4,791 nucleotides of DNA from a virus (lineage: Duplodnaviria; Heunggongvirae; Uroviricota; Caudoviricetes): the IMG/VR virus record IMGVR_UViG_2531839029_000017; one strand, 5' to 3'. Below the pieces are notes generated by a model. It was not told the origin of the DNA and did no database searches. It saw only the letters and a list, made by a program, of their open reading frames with translations. Position numbers and translations under genes: made by a program. Positions 843-4,696 of this stretch are shown one piece after another (the stretch's first letter is position 1; the number at the start of each line of letters is the position of its first letter).

Positions 843-884
843 TATTCAATTTTTGATTTTTTAGTATCAACCTTCCATAATAAT

Positions 885-942
885 GTCACCGGAGCTTGAA
901 CAACTCCGGTGACTTCTGCGCATTTAAGGGGACTTAAATGCG
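885..942. terminator. Two adjacent perfect inverted repeats: 10-bp stem gtcaccggag/ctccggtgac with 9-nt loop (885-913) and 10-bp stem cgcatttaag/cttaaatgcg with 4-nt loop (919-942). Candidate terminator(s) or protein-binding palindromes at the cargo/nin-operon boundary.
   Basis: Read directly from the sequence. Intergenic position between the AT-rich segment and ybcN. No strong U-tract follows, so intrinsic-terminator function is uncertain. Confidence 0.35.
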
Positions 943-1032
943 ACCACAATCTGAACTCCTTACCTTGTCACAGATGCAGAAATGCACCTGCGATGTCTTG
1001 CATCCAGCGTTTGATCTCTGCGGAGGTGAAGC

Positions 1033-1488
1033 GTGAACCTCCCACAAGATGGCATCAAATTACATCGCGGTAACTTCACCGCTGTCGGTCAGCAGATCCA
1101 GACTTATCTGGAAGACGGCAAATGCTTTCGCATGGTGCTTAAACCGTGGCGCGAGAGACGCAGTCTTTCCCAGAATGCACTCAGCCACATGTGGTACAGC
1201 GAAATCAGTGAATACCTCATCAGCAGGGGGAAATCGTTCGCTACTTCAGCATGGGTAAAAGATGCTCTCAAACACACATACCTCGGTTATGAAACCAAGG
1301 ACCTGGTTGATGTCGTAACCGGCGAAATCACTACTATCCAGTCGTTACGCCATACCTCCGATCTTGGTACCGGAGAGATGTATGTCTTCCTGTGTAAGGT
1401 TGAAGCCTGGGCGATGAATATTGGCTGCCACCTGACTATTCCACAGAGCTGCGAGTTCCAGCTGCTGCGTGACAAGCAGGAGGCGTAA
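1033..1488 (+). CDS. ybcN: YbcN-family protein (DLP12-type nin-region protein, described as a DNA base-flipping protein)
   Basis: 151-aa ORF starting [15 protein letters not shown], near-identical to my recollection of E. coli K-12 DLP12 YbcN. GTG start at 1033 preceded by GGAGGTG (1022-1028). Lies immediately upstream of ninE, as in DLP12. Confidence 0.8.
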
Positions 1489-1658
1489 TGGCTACACCGC
1501 TTATTCGTGTCATGAACGGACACATCTACAAAGTACCAAATCGTCGTAAGCGTAAACCTGAGCTGAAGCCATCCGAAATACCAACACTGCTCGGATATAC
1601 CGCCAGCCTGGTTGATAAAAAATGGTTGCGACTGGCAGCAAGGAGGAATCATGGCTGA
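1488..1658 (+). CDS. ninE: NinE-family phage protein (56 aa)
   Basis: ATG at 1488 overlaps the ybcN stop TAA (1486-1488) by one base. Translation [56 protein letters not shown] matches recalled DLP12 NinE. Too short to appear in the supplied ORF track. Confidence 0.8.
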   Translation: MATPLIRVMNGHIYKVPNRRKRKPELKPSEIPTLLGYTASLVDKKWLRLAARRNHG

Positions 1659-1941
1659 TTTGAGAAAAGCAGCGCGTAGTCGGGAATGCCAAGTAAGAAT
1701 CCCTGGCGTATGTAATGGCAACCCTGAAACGTCTGTACTGGCACATATCCGGCTGACTGGATTGTGCGGCACCGGTACCAAACCGCCAGACTTGATTGCC
1801 ACCATTGCATGTTCTGCCTGCCACGACGAAATCGACCGCCGCACACATTTTGTCGATGCTGCATATGCAAAAGAATGCGCGCTGGAAGGTATGGCGAGAA
1901 CACAGGTTATCTGGCTGAAAGAGGGGGTTATTAAGGCGTGA
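1651..1941 (+). CDS. ybcO: YbcO-family putative nuclease (DUF1364-like, Cys-rich, 96 aa)
   Basis: [43 protein letters not shown]... matches recalled DLP12 YbcO. AGGAGG at 1641-1646 sits 4 nt upstream of ATG 1651. The track's longer start at 1612 is unlikely because it lies inside ninE with no SD. Confidence 0.8.
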
Positions 1942-2300
1942 ATACCTACAGCATCACATTACCCTGGCCTCCGAGCAATAATCGCTACTACCGGCATAAT
2001 CGCGGGCGCACGCACATCAGCGCAGAAGGGCAGGCATACCGTGATAACGTCGCCCGAATCATCAAAGGCTCCATGCTGGATATCGGCCTGGCTATGCCAG
2101 TGAAAATCCGTATTGAGTGCCACATGCCGGATCGCCGTCGCCGTGACCTGGATAATCTGCAAAAAGCCGCTTTTGACGCACTCACCAAAGCAGGTTTCTG
2201 GCTGGATGATGCTCAGGTCGTTGATTACCGTGTTGTGAAGATGCCCGTTACCAAAGGTGGGAAGCTGGAGCTGACCATCACCGAACTGGGGAATGAATGA
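1938..2300 (+). CDS. rusA: RusA Holliday-junction resolvase (endodeoxyribonuclease RusA, 120 aa)
   Basis: Translation [26 protein letters not shown]...[29 protein letters not shown] matches recalled E. coli RusA, including the acidic DxDN region. GTG start overlaps the ybcO stop (GTGA). Confidence 0.9.
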
Positions 2301-2437
2301 TGTTTGAGTCTTATATGGCAGAACGTCTTCGCCACCGCTGGATGCGCCTGCGCTTATATCGTTTTCCTGGTTCTGTTTTGACCGATTACCGGATACTGAA
2401 GAATTACGCCAAAACACTGAAAGGAGCTGCCGCATGA
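2297..2437 (+). CDS. ylcG: YlcG-family small phage protein (46 aa)
   Basis: ATG at 2297 overlaps the rusA stop (2298-2300). Translation [46 protein letters not shown]. Stop 2435-2437 overlaps the next gene's ATG (ATGA). Position between rusA and Q matches DLP12 ylcG. Below the ORF-track length cutoff. Confidence 0.6.
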
Positions 2438-3123
2438 ATACCCAATATTTACAGTATGTCCGCGAGCAACTCATTGTGGCTACCGCTGATTTGAGCGGAG
2501 CAACGAAAGGACAGCTTGAAGCCTGGCTGGAGCATGCACAATTTGATACTGGTACATACAAACGAAAGAAGCCGCGCATTCTGGATGAGGTAACTGGCAG
2601 GATGATTACGCTGGATAATCCGCCGATTTCCGGTAAGCAGTCGTACGCAAAAGGTTCATCCATTGCACTGGTCAGCCAGGTTGAGTTCTCAACCTCGTCA
2701 TGGCGCCGCGCGGTTCTGTCTCTCGAAGAACATCAGAAAGCGTGGTTGCTGTGGAGTTACAGCGAAAGTGTTCGCTGGGAACATCAGGTCACCATAACGC
2801 AGTGGGCATGGAGCGAGTTTAAGACTCTGTTGGGTACCAGGAAAATTGCAGGTAAGACACTGGAACGTTTGAAGAAGTTGATCTGGCTGGCGGCACAGGA
2901 TGTGAAGAACGAGCTGGCAGGGCGTAAGACCTATGAATACCAGGAGCTGGCATCACTGGTGGGAGTGACATCAAAAAACTGGTCTGAGACATTTACTGAA
3001 CGCTGGGTTGCAATGAAACACATTTTTCTACAGCTTGATAGCCAAGCTTTATTGCTTTTAACGAAAACACGTTCAAAACAAAAGACCACATTTTCACAGC
3101 AAGATATTGCAAAACTGGATTAA
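2434..3123 (+). CDS. Putative late-gene antitermination protein (Q-like), non-lambda family, 229 aa, no cysteines
   Basis: Occupies the Q slot: last gene of the nin operon, just upstream of a non-coding region with promoter and terminator hairpins and then the lysis genes. AAGGAG at 2421-2426 sits 7 nt before the ATG. Not similar to lambda Q as I recall it; family assignment is inferred from position. Confidence 0.5.
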   Translation: MNTQYLQYVREQLIVATADLSGATKGQLEAWLEHAQFDTGTYKRKKPRILDEVTGRMITLDNPPISGKQSYAKGSSIALVSQVEFSTSSWRRAVLSLEEHQKAWLLWSYSESVRWEHQVTITQWAWSEFKTLLGTRKIAGKTLERLKKLIWLAAQDVKNELAGRKTYEYQELASLVGVTSKNWSETFTERWVAMKHIFLQLDSQALLLLTKTRSKQKTTFSQQDIAKLD

Positions 3124-3135: not shown

Positions 3136-3191
3136 TTATGTAAATCTGATATTTTGCCAATGTTGTACGCACTGGCAGTAATCCAAATTCA

Positions 3192-3226
3192 AGCCCGAGG
3201 TTTAAAGCCTTGGGCTTTTCTGTTTC
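3192..3226 (+). terminator. Hairpin with 9-bp stem agcccgagg/ccttgggct (one G-U pair) and 7-nt loop, followed by TTTTCTGTTTC; candidate intrinsic terminator or 5' structure of the late leader RNA
   Basis: Read directly from the sequence. Lies in the Q-to-holin intergenic region. Confidence 0.4.
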
Positions 3227-3304: not shown

Positions 3305-3330
3305 GCCAGCTACATGCTGGCTTTTTTATT
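3305..3330 (+). terminator. Intrinsic terminator candidate (tR'-like): 6-bp GC-rich stem gccagc/gctggc, 5-nt loop, then TTTTTTATT
   Basis: Perfect stem followed by a T-run. It is roughly 150-200 nt downstream of the candidate promoters, comparable to the approximately 194-nt lambda 6S transcript ended at tR'. Confidence 0.5.
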
Positions 3331-3750: not shown

Positions 3751-4213
3751 TCCTCAGCGTAAAGCCTTCCTCGATATGTTGGCGTGGTCAGAAGGAACGG
3801 ATAACGGGCGACAACCGACACGTAACCACGGTTATGATGTTATTGTTGGCGGCGAACTGTTTACTGATTACTCCGATCACCCTCGCAAACTTGTCACGCT
3901 ACACCCCAAACTCAAATCAACAGCCGCCGGACGTTATCAGCTTCTTTCACGCTGGTGGGATGCTTACCGTAAACAGCTTGGTTTGAAAGACTTCTCCCCC
4001 AAAAGCCAGGACGCAGTGGCATTGCAGCAGATTAAAGAGCGTGGTGCTTTACCTATGATTGATCGCGGTGATATCCGTCAGGCAATCGACCGTTGCAGTA
4101 ATATCTGGGCTTCACTGCCGGGCGCTGGTTATGGTCAGTTCGAGCATAAGGCTGACAGCCTGATTGCAAAATTCAAAGAAGCTGGCGGAACGGTCAGAGA
4201 GAGTGAGGTATGA
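3737..4213 (+). CDS. R: Endolysin, lambda R-type lytic transglycosylase (158 aa)
   Basis: Near-identical to recalled lambda R ([20 protein letters not shown]...[31 protein letters not shown]), including the catalytic Glu in the WSEGT motif. Only the first few residues and a few scattered positions differ. Confidence 0.95.
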
Positions 4214-4671
4214 GCAGAATAACCGCGATTATCTCCGCTCTGCTCATCTGCATCATCGTCTGCCTGTCATGGGCTGTTAATCATTACCGTGATAACGCCA
4301 TTACCTACAAAGCCCAGCGCGACAAAAATGCCAGAGAACTGAAGCTGGCGAACGTGGCAATTACTGACATGCAGATGCGTCAGCGTGATGTTGCTGCGCT
4401 CGATGCAAAATACACGAAGGAGTTAGCTGATGCGAAAGCTGAAAATGATGCTCTGCATGATGATGTTGCCGCTGGTCGTCGTCGGTTGCACATCAAAGCA
4501 GTCTGTCAGTCAGTGCGTGAAGCCACCACCGCCTCCGGCGTGGATAATGCAGCCTCCCCCCGACTGGCAGACACCGCTGAACGGGATTATTTCACCCTCA
4601 GAGAGAGGCTGATCACTATGCAAAAACAACTGGAAGGAACCCAGAAGTATATTAATGAGCAGTGCAGATAG
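4210..4671 (+). CDS. Rz: Rz inner-membrane spanin (i-spanin), 153 aa
   Basis: Near-identical to recalled lambda Rz ([47 protein letters not shown]...YINEQCR). N-terminal TM segment. ATG overlaps the R stop (ATGA). Confidence 0.95.
4430..4612 (+). CDS. Rz1: Rz1 outer-membrane lipoprotein spanin (o-spanin), 60 aa, embedded in the +1 frame of Rz
   Basis: Translation [24 protein letters not shown]...[29 protein letters not shown] matches recalled lambda Rz1. Lipobox VVGC and proline-rich region. AAGGAG at 4417-4422 sits 7 nt before the ATG. Confidence 0.9.
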
Positions 4672-4696
4672 AGCTGCCCATATCGATGGGCAGCTC
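4671..4696. other. Perfect 10-bp inverted repeat gagctgccca/tgggcagctc with a 6-nt loop, between the convergent Rz and bor genes; possible bidirectional terminator or RNA processing site
   Basis: Read directly from the sequence. Begins at the last base of the Rz stop codon. No strong T-tract on either side. Confidence 0.3.

Follow-up and report, generated by a model that had tools for sequence, protein, structure and literature searches.

The paired inverted repeats at the head of a lambdoid nin operon are hairpins of an RNA leader

Introduction

What do two perfect inverted repeats do at the boundary between the cargo genes and the nin operon of a lambdoid prophage? The repeats, here called inverted repeat 1 (IR1) and inverted repeat 2 (IR2), lie in a stretch of 4,791 nt (IMG/VR record IMGVR_UViG_2531839029_000017), which was analyzed as a whole and is referred to as the window. 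It shows 100% identity to a lambdoid prophage adjoining icd in Escherichia coli O157:H7. A first-pass annotation, made from the sequence, had offered three readings of the repeats: stacked terminators insulating the cargo from the nin operon like tR2 of phage lambda, a bidirectional terminator, or operator sites of a dimeric DNA-binding protein.

The palindromes are identified here as a regulatory leader and as neither paired classical terminators nor operators of a protein. As to the way this leader works, the reading which we favor as probable, with clear reservations, is that IR1 and IR2 are the two hairpins of a structured RNA leader on the plus strand heading the nin operon orf33-ybcN-ninE-DUF1364-rusA-ylcG-Q, with IR2 serving as a gate and IR1 as an attenuator.

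Inverted Repeats and RNA Folding

The two repeats are arranged as follows.

885–913, plus strand: IR1, an RNA hairpin with a 10-bp GC-rich stem; arms 885–894 (GTCACCGGAG) and 904–913 (CTCCGGTGAC), complementary at 10 of 10 positions, 9-nt loop
919–942, plus strand: IR2; arms 919–928 (CGCATTTAAG) and 933–942 (CTTAAATGCG), complementary at 10 of 10 positions, loop GGGA

Repeat scans confirmed that both are perfect 10-bp inverted repeats, separated by a linker of 5 nt (914–918, TTCTG). Perfect hairpin-type repeats of at least 9 nt occur four times in the 4.8-kb window (IR1, IR2, 805–827, and 4671–4696), and three of them fall within 805–942. The folding energy of both strands, proposed earlier as a check, was calculated for positions 880–960. 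The plus strand folds with −31.6 kcal/mol (z = −6.6, 0 of 200 dinucleotide shuffles as good) and the minus strand with −34.5 kcal/mol (z = −6.5), each being about 6.5 standard deviations below the dinucleotide shuffles, of which 0 of 200 were equal. On the plus strand IR1 alone reaches −17.1 kcal/mol with 7 G-C pairs among the 10 of its stem, and IR2 alone, with an A/U-rich stem, −12.0 kcal/mol.

Comparative Analysis of Related Leaders

To gather relatives of the locus, a 20-nt bait was chosen outside the hairpins, in the conserved core of a small open reading frame (ORF) starting in IR2, orf33, and loci found via YbcN were added. The 132 leaders obtained, 108 of them distinct, come from Escherichia, Enterobacter, Citrobacter, and related genera, both from genomes and from phage contigs. 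Both hairpins were predicted by RNAfold in each of the 65 distinct two-hairpin segments. As MAFFT combined with RNAalifold misregistered the stems of the raw segments and under-called the structure, anchored counts and a covariance-model alignment were used instead.

In the covariance-model alignment of 67 distinct sequences 96.7% of the cells pair (99% of those in IR2), compared to 78% in column shuffles and 28–51% with slid partners. The covariation score is 0.479 vs. 0.157 for the shuffles and at most 0.071 for the slid partners. Compensatory changes were found in 18 of the 20 stem pairs, nine of ten in IR1 and nine of ten in IR2, the latter being what is expected of a ribosome binding site (RBS) hairpin whose pairing is kept by selection. 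IR1 occurs in 52 distinct versions with 38 different 5′ arms around a nearly invariant loop YYTGARCNN (YYUGARCNN in the RNA), which is CUUGAACAA in the window. IR2 occurs in 12 distinct versions with at least 8 different stems, e.g., CGCATTTAAG/CTTAAATGCG, GCGCTAAACG/CGTTTA-T-GCGC, CGCATATGATT/AATTATATGCG, and GCGCTTTGAG/CTCAAAGTGC, all of them with the GGGA loop.

The strand on which these structures form can be deduced from the wobble pairs. The distinct IR1 stems contain 73 G·U pairs vs. 1 A·C on the plus strand, the distinct IR2 stems 6 vs. 0, and the plus strand is the more stable one in 12 of 12 versions of IR2. Since the G·U wobbles are nearly confined to the plus strand, an asymmetry which a DNA palindrome or a minus-strand RNA would lack, the structures are assigned to plus-strand RNA. 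For IR1 this assignment rests on the wobble counts and not on the total folding energy, which is uninformative there (29 for the plus vs. 21 for the minus strand), as the minus strand gains pairs in the loop. Judged from this sequence comparison, IR1 and IR2 are real, conserved hairpins of a plus-strand RNA. No covariance-model match of Rfam 15 overlapping 850–1040 was found at E ≤ 1.

Ribosome Binding Site of orf33 and Coupling to ybcN

The features in and downstream of IR2 are listed below; ybcN and the five genes following it were taken from the ORF list and RefSeq.

926–932, plus strand: Shine-Dalgarno core AAGGGGA, made up of the top of the IR2 stem and the GGGA tetraloop (929–932), 5 nt before the ATG
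938–940, plus strand: ATG start codon of orf33, within the 3′ arm of IR2
938–1036, plus strand: orf33, a ylcH-like ORF of 32 codons, hypothetical protein in RefSeq, with a stop codon overlapping the GTG of ybcN (GTGA)
1007–1034, plus strand: third hairpin, GCGTTT.ATCTC-TGCG-GAGGT.AAGCGT, covering Shine-Dalgarno sequence and GTG of ybcN; its 5′ arm is formed by the last codons of orf33
1033–1488, plus strand: ybcN
1488–1658, plus strand: ninE
1651–1941, plus strand: DUF1364
1938–2300, plus strand: rusA
2297–2437, plus strand: ylcG
2434–3123, plus strand: Q

The small ORF, which the first-pass annotation had missed, is orf33 of phage 82 and ylcH of E. coli K-12. Its protein family gave no NCBIfam or PHROG match. 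A start codon, either ATG or GTG, is located 4–7 nt 3′ of the GGGA loop in all 108 distinct leaders, and the ORF is intact in all of them with a length of 29–34 codons, its N-terminal third being wholly different between lineages. In K-12, the ATG of ylcH, situated 19 nt after a mapped RNA 3′ end described below, is the ATG in the IR2 arm. Shine-Dalgarno sequence and start codon of a real ORF are thus enclosed in one hairpin, and IR2 is shown to contain the predicted translation initiation region of orf33. It would present the Shine-Dalgarno core in or beside the GGGA tetraloop and pair the start codon in its 3′ arm, which would limit the entry of ribosomes.

Stop codon of orf33 and start codon of ybcN overlap as ATGA or GTGA in 106 of the 108 leaders. 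In addition, the third hairpin folds with −14.2 kcal/mol in the window and with a mean of −15.8 kcal/mol (mean z −3.3) over 79 distinct versions. Its pairing is kept with different sequences across lineages, e.g., GCGGTTTCC/GGAGGCCGT and GCGTTACCTCT/AGGTGGCGT, and at least 4 of the 6 nt of the ybcN Shine-Dalgarno sequence are paired in 56 of the 79 versions. The ybcN site is therefore predicted to be occluded by pairing to the upstream ORF (uORF) itself, and this combination of overlap and occluding hairpin is, as far as architecture tells, the standard one for structure-mediated translational coupling. As the Shine-Dalgarno sequence and start of ybcN would be locked by pairing to a 5′ arm within orf33, opening ybcN would require ribosomes that have passed IR2.

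The six junctions from orf33 to Q all overlap by 1–8 nt. Given the overlap of orf33 and ybcN at their stop and start codons and the predicted occlusion of the ybcN ribosome site by the third hairpin, IR2 probably gates the entry to this overlapping chain. We infer that it throttles translation and limits ribosome entry to the seven cistrons, the last of which encodes the late-gene activator Q.

The first ~36–40 nt of orf33 (943–982 in the window) are C-rich and G-poor, with 12 C vs. 5 G and family means of 12.7 C vs. 4.3 G. This bias, which is at the 95th percentile within the window, persists though the encoded N-terminus differs between lineages. As a suggestion only, such a rut-like start could allow Rho action in the absence of orf33 translation; Adams et al. 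(2021; PMC7815308) list a Rho region for neither ylcH nor ybcN.

Promoter-Like Element

The segment upstream of IR1 contains the following features.

853–858, plus strand: −35-like hexamer TTGATT, followed by a 17-bp spacer to the −10-like hexamer
876–881, plus strand: −10-like hexamer CATAAT, ending 3 nt before IR1
853–870, plus strand: palindrome TTGAT-N8-ATCAA, overlapping the −35-like hexamer and the spacer, centered at about −26.5

At the 17-bp spacer, TTGATT is present in 86 and TTGATA in 6 of the 108 distinct leaders (92 in total). A −10-like hexamer with A at position 2 and T at position 6 is found 1–5 nt 5′ of the IR1 stem in all 108, with CATAAT (81) and TATAAT (9) among its forms. 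Where a lineage has an unrelated upstream module, this module provides TG-N-TATAAT (15 with the extended TG). The predicted transcription start is approximately A888, 7 nt after CATAAT and inside the 5′ arm of IR1. The hexamers and the spacer of this promoter-like element are strongly conserved, and the start site is implied only by a filtering rule of Adams et al. (2021) explained below.

In 21 of 103 distinct upstream contexts, a canonical terminator made of a hairpin and a T-run was found; it lies just upstream of the promoter-like element and coincides with neither IR1 nor IR2. Where it is present in the relatives, this terminator is the true equivalent of tR2.

The palindrome TTGAT-N8-ATCAA is a candidate operator. 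In the form TTGA-N9-ATCA it is present in 91 of the 108 leaders, and its half-sites are conserved around a variable interior, an operator-like pattern. FNR sites use N4 spacing and LexA uses CTGT-N8-ACAG; both proteins were rejected as binders, as neither pattern fits.

RNA 3′ Ends at IR1

For the region immediately after IR1, data are available from the DLP12 prophage of E. coli K-12, which matches the window exactly in the IR1 stem and its 3′ flank.

914–919, plus strand: linker UUCUG(C), homologous to the Term-seq 3′ ends of K-12 (G918/C919)

The Term-seq data of Adams et al. (2021; PMC7815308, supplementary files 1 and 3) contain RNA 3′ ends at 572349(+) and 572350(+), in the context ...CTCCGGTGACTTCT[G]CGC. 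These positions follow the IR1 stem by 5–6 nt and precede the ATG of ylcH by 19 nt. In terms of the shared sequence the end maps to ...GGUGACUUCUG(C). It was catalogued as an “orphan, upstream ORF” 3′ end without discussion or characterization. The 5′-untranslated region (UTR) table (supplementary file 3) keeps 3′ ends only if a mapped start site lies upstream and more than 20 nt away (PMC7815308), so a mapped start site upstream was required for 572349/572350 to be kept. Besides these two positions, no plus-strand 3′ end is listed in the DLP12 nin region, and neither a 3′ end after IR2 nor one on the minus strand nearby is listed for K-12 (PMC7815308). Of the two stems, only that of IR1 is thus followed within a few nt by an RNA 3′ end in vivo, as seen in the DLP12 homolog, and in this homolog IR1 is the site where short leader transcripts end.

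Of the idea that IR1 is a terminator, this much held: an RNA 3′ end follows the identical stem in K-12, and the 10-bp stem with 7 G-C pairs has the stability and the GC content of an intrinsic terminator. The remainder did not. As the first-pass annotation had remarked, there is no strong U-tract on the plus strand: a tract of about 5 or more U in 8 nt was found 3′ of neither stem, as UUCUGCGC after IR1 contains 3 of 8 and ACCACAAU after IR2 1 of 8. A consensus terminator scan flagged IR1 only as read on the minus strand, with the tail AUUAUUAUGG, and called no plus-strand terminator at IR1 or IR2. The pyrimidine-rich 5-nt tail after IR1 is conserved across the leaders. Consequently, IR1 with its poor U-tract is read as either an attenuator or a hairpin protecting the RNA end, and a weak attenuator close to the promoter is the most likely reading.

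Two further reports concern the expression of this operon. In DLP12, adequate expression of rusA needs a promoter supplied by an insertion (PMC4118853), which is counted as support for a restrictive operon head, and RNA of ylcH can be detected as a unit of its own (PMC8910356).

Proposed Mechanism of the Leader

Combining these elements, IR1 would act just after the sigma-70-type promoter-like element as a weak, U-poor terminator that holds the operon and Q quiet. This attenuation could be relieved if the polymerase is termination-resistant or if a factor acts on the invariant loop. IR2 would be the gate for translation into the overlapping cistrons up to Q.

Several points weigh against this picture. 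In the covariance-model alignment, phylogenetically related sequences were fitted to the structure, and the bait limits the sampling to leaders retaining the orf33 core. A promoter scan alone performs no better than chance (7 found, 7.4 expected). Moreover, a start at about A888 would strip the outer three pairs from IR1, yet these outer pairs covary, and so either read-through transcripts from upstream play a part or transcription starts at another position. Read counts are low for the K-12 3′ ends, which appear only in the tabs without Rho or terminator scores and could be decay intermediates. IR1 itself combines its poor U-tract (3 U in 8) with a long loop, and the simple scan gave no terminator on the plus strand. 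Finally, the invariance of the IR1 loop and the palindrome TTGAT-N8-ATCAA both fall outside what the leader model explains.

The model can be extended to a dedicated N-independent riboregulatory switch deciding the expression of Q, hence lysis, in a large lambdoid group including O157:H7 prophages. The loop of IR1 would be recognized, or IR2 opened, by a factor of the host or the phage or by a small RNA; alternatively, the IR1 RNA of ~31 nt would itself act in trans. We consider this extension quite unlikely.

Alternative Explanations

The first alternative leaves the role of IR2 unchanged and is restricted to IR1, which might be merely an RNA-stability element, either a 5′-terminal stem-loop counteracting 5′-end-dependent decay or a barrier to 3′ exonucleases, the mapped 3′ end being a decay product. 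The predicted start indeed puts IR1 at the extreme 5′ end of the transcript, with a gap of 1–5 nt between −10 hexamer and stem in all 108 leaders, and the poor U-tract and the low Term-seq read counts point in the same direction. It also agrees with the view of Adams et al. that most 3′ ends in 5′-UTRs without terminator or Rho signature are probably processing products (PMC7815308). However, a 3′ exonuclease should stall first at IR2 (−12 to −17 kcal/mol), where no 3′ end is listed. The conservation of the pyrimidine-rich tail after IR1 speaks against a stability element as well, and the poor expression of the DLP12 operon fits attenuation better than stabilization. Taken together, a stability element is possible, though rather unlikely.

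Classical intrinsic terminators equivalent to tR2 might shut the cargo off from the nin operon, be it as a stacked pair or as a single bidirectional one. They would account for the stable stems, for a position like that of lambda tR2 just upstream of ninB, for the K-12 3′ end after IR1, and for the scan call on the minus strand. Nevertheless, we regard them as very unlikely. Stacking fails at IR2, the RBS and start-codon hairpin of orf33 (with the RBS already annotated in phage 82), which has no U-tract and is followed by no 3′ end in K-12. A bidirectional terminator is not supported in view of the plus-strand-specific wobbles (73 G·U vs. 1 A·C) and of the gene orientation, as the genes flanking IR1 and IR2 are all on the plus strand according to the RefSeq annotation and none converges on the site; a minus-strand 3′ end is also absent from the K-12 catalogue. 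The same observations speak against a terminator used on the minus strand, and a classical plus-strand terminator was rejected because of the missing scan call and the poor U-tract. Furthermore, a promoter-like element is located between the cargo and IR1, and canonical terminators, when present, are upstream of this element. The analogy with lambda tR2 drawn by the first-pass annotation does not hold either, since lambda tR2 is canonical and comes without promoter or small ORF, only a hairpin plus U-run terminator being found before ninB in lambda.

An equally small probability is given to the reading of IR1 as a recognition hairpin acting through its invariant loop, be it an N-type boxB, a put-like RNA modifying the polymerase, or the seed loop of a trans-acting RNA of ~31 nt, so that IR1 and IR2 together would form an antitermination or riboregulatory switch. 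It would explain the near invariance of the loop YYUGARCNN on a covarying stem, and it is compatible with a portable module following a promoter and with the short RNA ending after IR1 in vivo. The loop also resembles lambda boxB, CCCUGAAAAAGGG. In phage phi80, the phage in which the boxB and immunity-operator readings were tested, the nutL core CACGTAAACGTG with boxA TGCTTTTTA is unrelated to the IR1 stem TCTGCCAG..CTGGCAGA with the loop CCTGAACAA, and no boxA adjoins IR1; a boxB or nut identity of IR1 was rejected on this basis. Moreover, the same loop is found in phages with different N and immunity modules, there is no Rfam match, and convincing copies of the hairpin occur only in leader modules, canonical or duplicated.

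A pair of DNA operators for a dimeric protein, IR1 overlapping +1 and IR2 being of the P22 c2 type, is extremely improbable, because the arms change by compensatory substitution around invariant centers (GGGA; YYTGARCNN), the reverse of an operator, and because DNA binding does not produce a 73:1 asymmetry of T·G vs. A·C. In favor of it are the annotation “possible regulator-binding site” in phage 82 and the perfection of the palindromes at or near a promoter. The IR2 half-sites ATTTAAG/CTTAAAT (core ATTTAAG-GGGA-CTTAAAT, 922–939) equal those of the synthetic P22 c2 operator, ATTTAAG-ATAT-CTTAAAT. However, IR2 is identical in phi80, and yet none of the six CI operators annotated there is related to it; phi80 also lacks a second ATTTAAG-N4-CTTAAAT site, so an immunity or P22-c2-like operator was rejected for IR2. 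In addition, the window prophage has lost its immunity region (RefSeq annotation).

Distribution and Duplication of the Leader

The structured leader is not tied to ybcN as such. Homologs of ybcN in Pantoea and Rosenbergiella (61–65% identity; L012, L013, L014, and L016) have no leader, and another coding sequence directly precedes the gene, so that the leader belongs to a single sub-lineage of the nin module and not to ybcN itself.

Five phage contigs contain a second same-strand copy of the whole module, 2.3–4.1 kb upstream and before other genes. The duplicated unit comprises the promoter-like element, IR1, IR2, and the start of orf33.

L049: 2275–2350 and 4586–4661
L135: 10377–10452 and 12688–12763
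L116: 6845–6920 and 10948–11023
L128: 261–336 and 2584–2659
L050 (minus strand): 13004–13079 and 10597–10672

As the duplicated copies stand before other genes, the module is regarded as a portable operon head and recombination joint, and recombination within the leader appears to have brought in the cargo. The upstream copy in L049 and L135 has its orf33 interrupted by TAG and precedes a small membrane-like ORF, a Bro-N-like ORF of 201 amino acids, a HEPN-like ORF of 138 amino acids, and an ORF of 133 amino acids (labels assigned by eye). No convincing copies of the IR1 hairpin were found outside canonical or duplicated leader modules, as the few other regex matches look like chance.

A sequence labeled as E. 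coli K-12 MG1655 “original strain” (L144, NZ_CP174267.1, 1834944–1842045) includes the nin region of a phi80-like prophage with a leader of the window type. The lead of a second copy in K-12 was dismissed, as this is merely a phi80 prophage in that isolate. It is consistent with the known spread of phi80 among laboratory strains.

Gene Order and Other Features of the Window

The prophage has the gene order int, xis, truncated O, P, ren, emrE, frameshifted recombinase, ybcN, ninE, DUF1364, rusA, ylcG, Q, holin, lysozyme, Rz. The block shared with divergent relatives begins at approximately 851–928. The cargo/nin boundary proposed by the first-pass annotation is therefore a genuine mosaic boundary, around which the module is duplicated with inserted cargo in some phages.

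On the cargo side, a perfect palindrome TAGCTTGTG-GATAT-CACAAGCTA was found at 805–827, 25 nt upstream of the −35-like hexamer. It lies within an ORF of 63 codons (651–842) and outside the block shared by the relatives (homology from ~851). The longest hairpin-type repeat of the window is a perfect 11-bp inverted repeat GAGCTGCCCAT-N4-ATGGGCAGCTC at 4671–4696, starting at the stop codon of Rz (4210–4671).

Directly 3′ of Q, positions 3139–3218 gave a sub-threshold Rfam match to isrJ (30.4 bits vs. a gathering score of 37, E = 0.009), ending in a strong terminator (3191–3217 plus TTCTGTTT). This is probably a late-promoter leader or 6S-like RNA with tR′. A further terminator-like site is present at 3305–3321.

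Significance of the Leader

The leader is placed where the sole path to Q, which activates lysis and the late genes, begins. It is widespread in E. coli, Enterobacter, Citrobacter, and Klebsiella, in lambdoid phages as well as in prophages. If the gating is true, it would help to explain the silence of nin genes in cryptic prophages, such as rusA, and mutations in stem or loop would be a handle on the N-independent setting of Q dosage and lysis timing. It is furthermore a conserved RNA motif that shows strong covariation and has no entry in the RNA family databases.

In the literature searched, no paper was found on ylcH together with ybcN, and a search on nin promoters returned nothing on the IR1/IR2 leader. 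The three-hairpin RNA leader with a coupled upstream ORF is not described there; the element itself is known from the records of phage 82 and phi80.

Comparison With Known Systems

The closest relatives are the head of the nin region of phage 82 (GenBank X92588; Mahdi, Sharples, Mandal and Lloyd, 1996) and the ylcH-ybcN region of DLP12, which represent the same element, with an IR1 stem and 3′ flank identical to those of the window. The phage 82 record annotates a putative −35 and −10, an inverted repeat as “possible regulator-binding site,” which is IR1, an RBS in the IR2 loop, and orf33 overlapping orf151 (ybcN). There the inverted repeat was placed at the transcription start and read as a DNA site, and IR2 was not noted as a hairpin. 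The IR2 stem of phage 82 and DLP12 differs from that of the window (TAAACG/CGTTTA plus bulge), and it was this difference that revealed the covariation. In the phi80 record, IR2 is listed as plain “IR4.” Both labels, “regulator-binding site” and “IR4,” are better read as RNA hairpins.

Premature 3′ ends in 5′-UTRs and promoter-proximal attenuators found by Term-seq form a second group, and the K-12 homolog is in the same catalogue, without a Rho or terminator score (PMC7815308).

Like IR1, lambda tR2 is located between replication or cargo genes and the first nin cistron and is associated with a 3′ end. In contrast to IR1, it has a canonical 8-bp GC stem plus TTTTATTT, where IR1 has only UUCU, and it lacks a promoter-like element, a small ORF, and an RBS hairpin.

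Structured initiation regions and translational-operator hairpins are well known from the replicase operator of RNA phages and from the coupling of coat and replicase translation. As in IR2/orf33, the start codon is paired there, and the downstream site is closed by the upstream coding sequence and opened by ribosomes. The orf33 leader differs in carrying the Shine-Dalgarno sequence in a GNRA-type tetraloop and a uORF of 32 codons heading the operon of a DNA phage, and we know of no repressor protein for it, unlike for the replicase operator.

The put antiterminator RNAs of HK022 and HK639 and boxB of the lambda nut sites are stem-loops right after a promoter. IR1 shares this position and has a conserved loop on a covarying stem. 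The put RNA of HK022 consists of two specific stem-loops by which the polymerase becomes termination-resistant in cis. IR2, in contrast to put RNA, is a ribosome-binding hairpin and not a polymerase-binding stem, which makes membership of IR1 and IR2 in the HK022 put type unlikely. By analogy, the leader as a whole appears to work like devices that are known individually, namely a 5′-UTR attenuator, an RBS hairpin, and coupling through a uORF.

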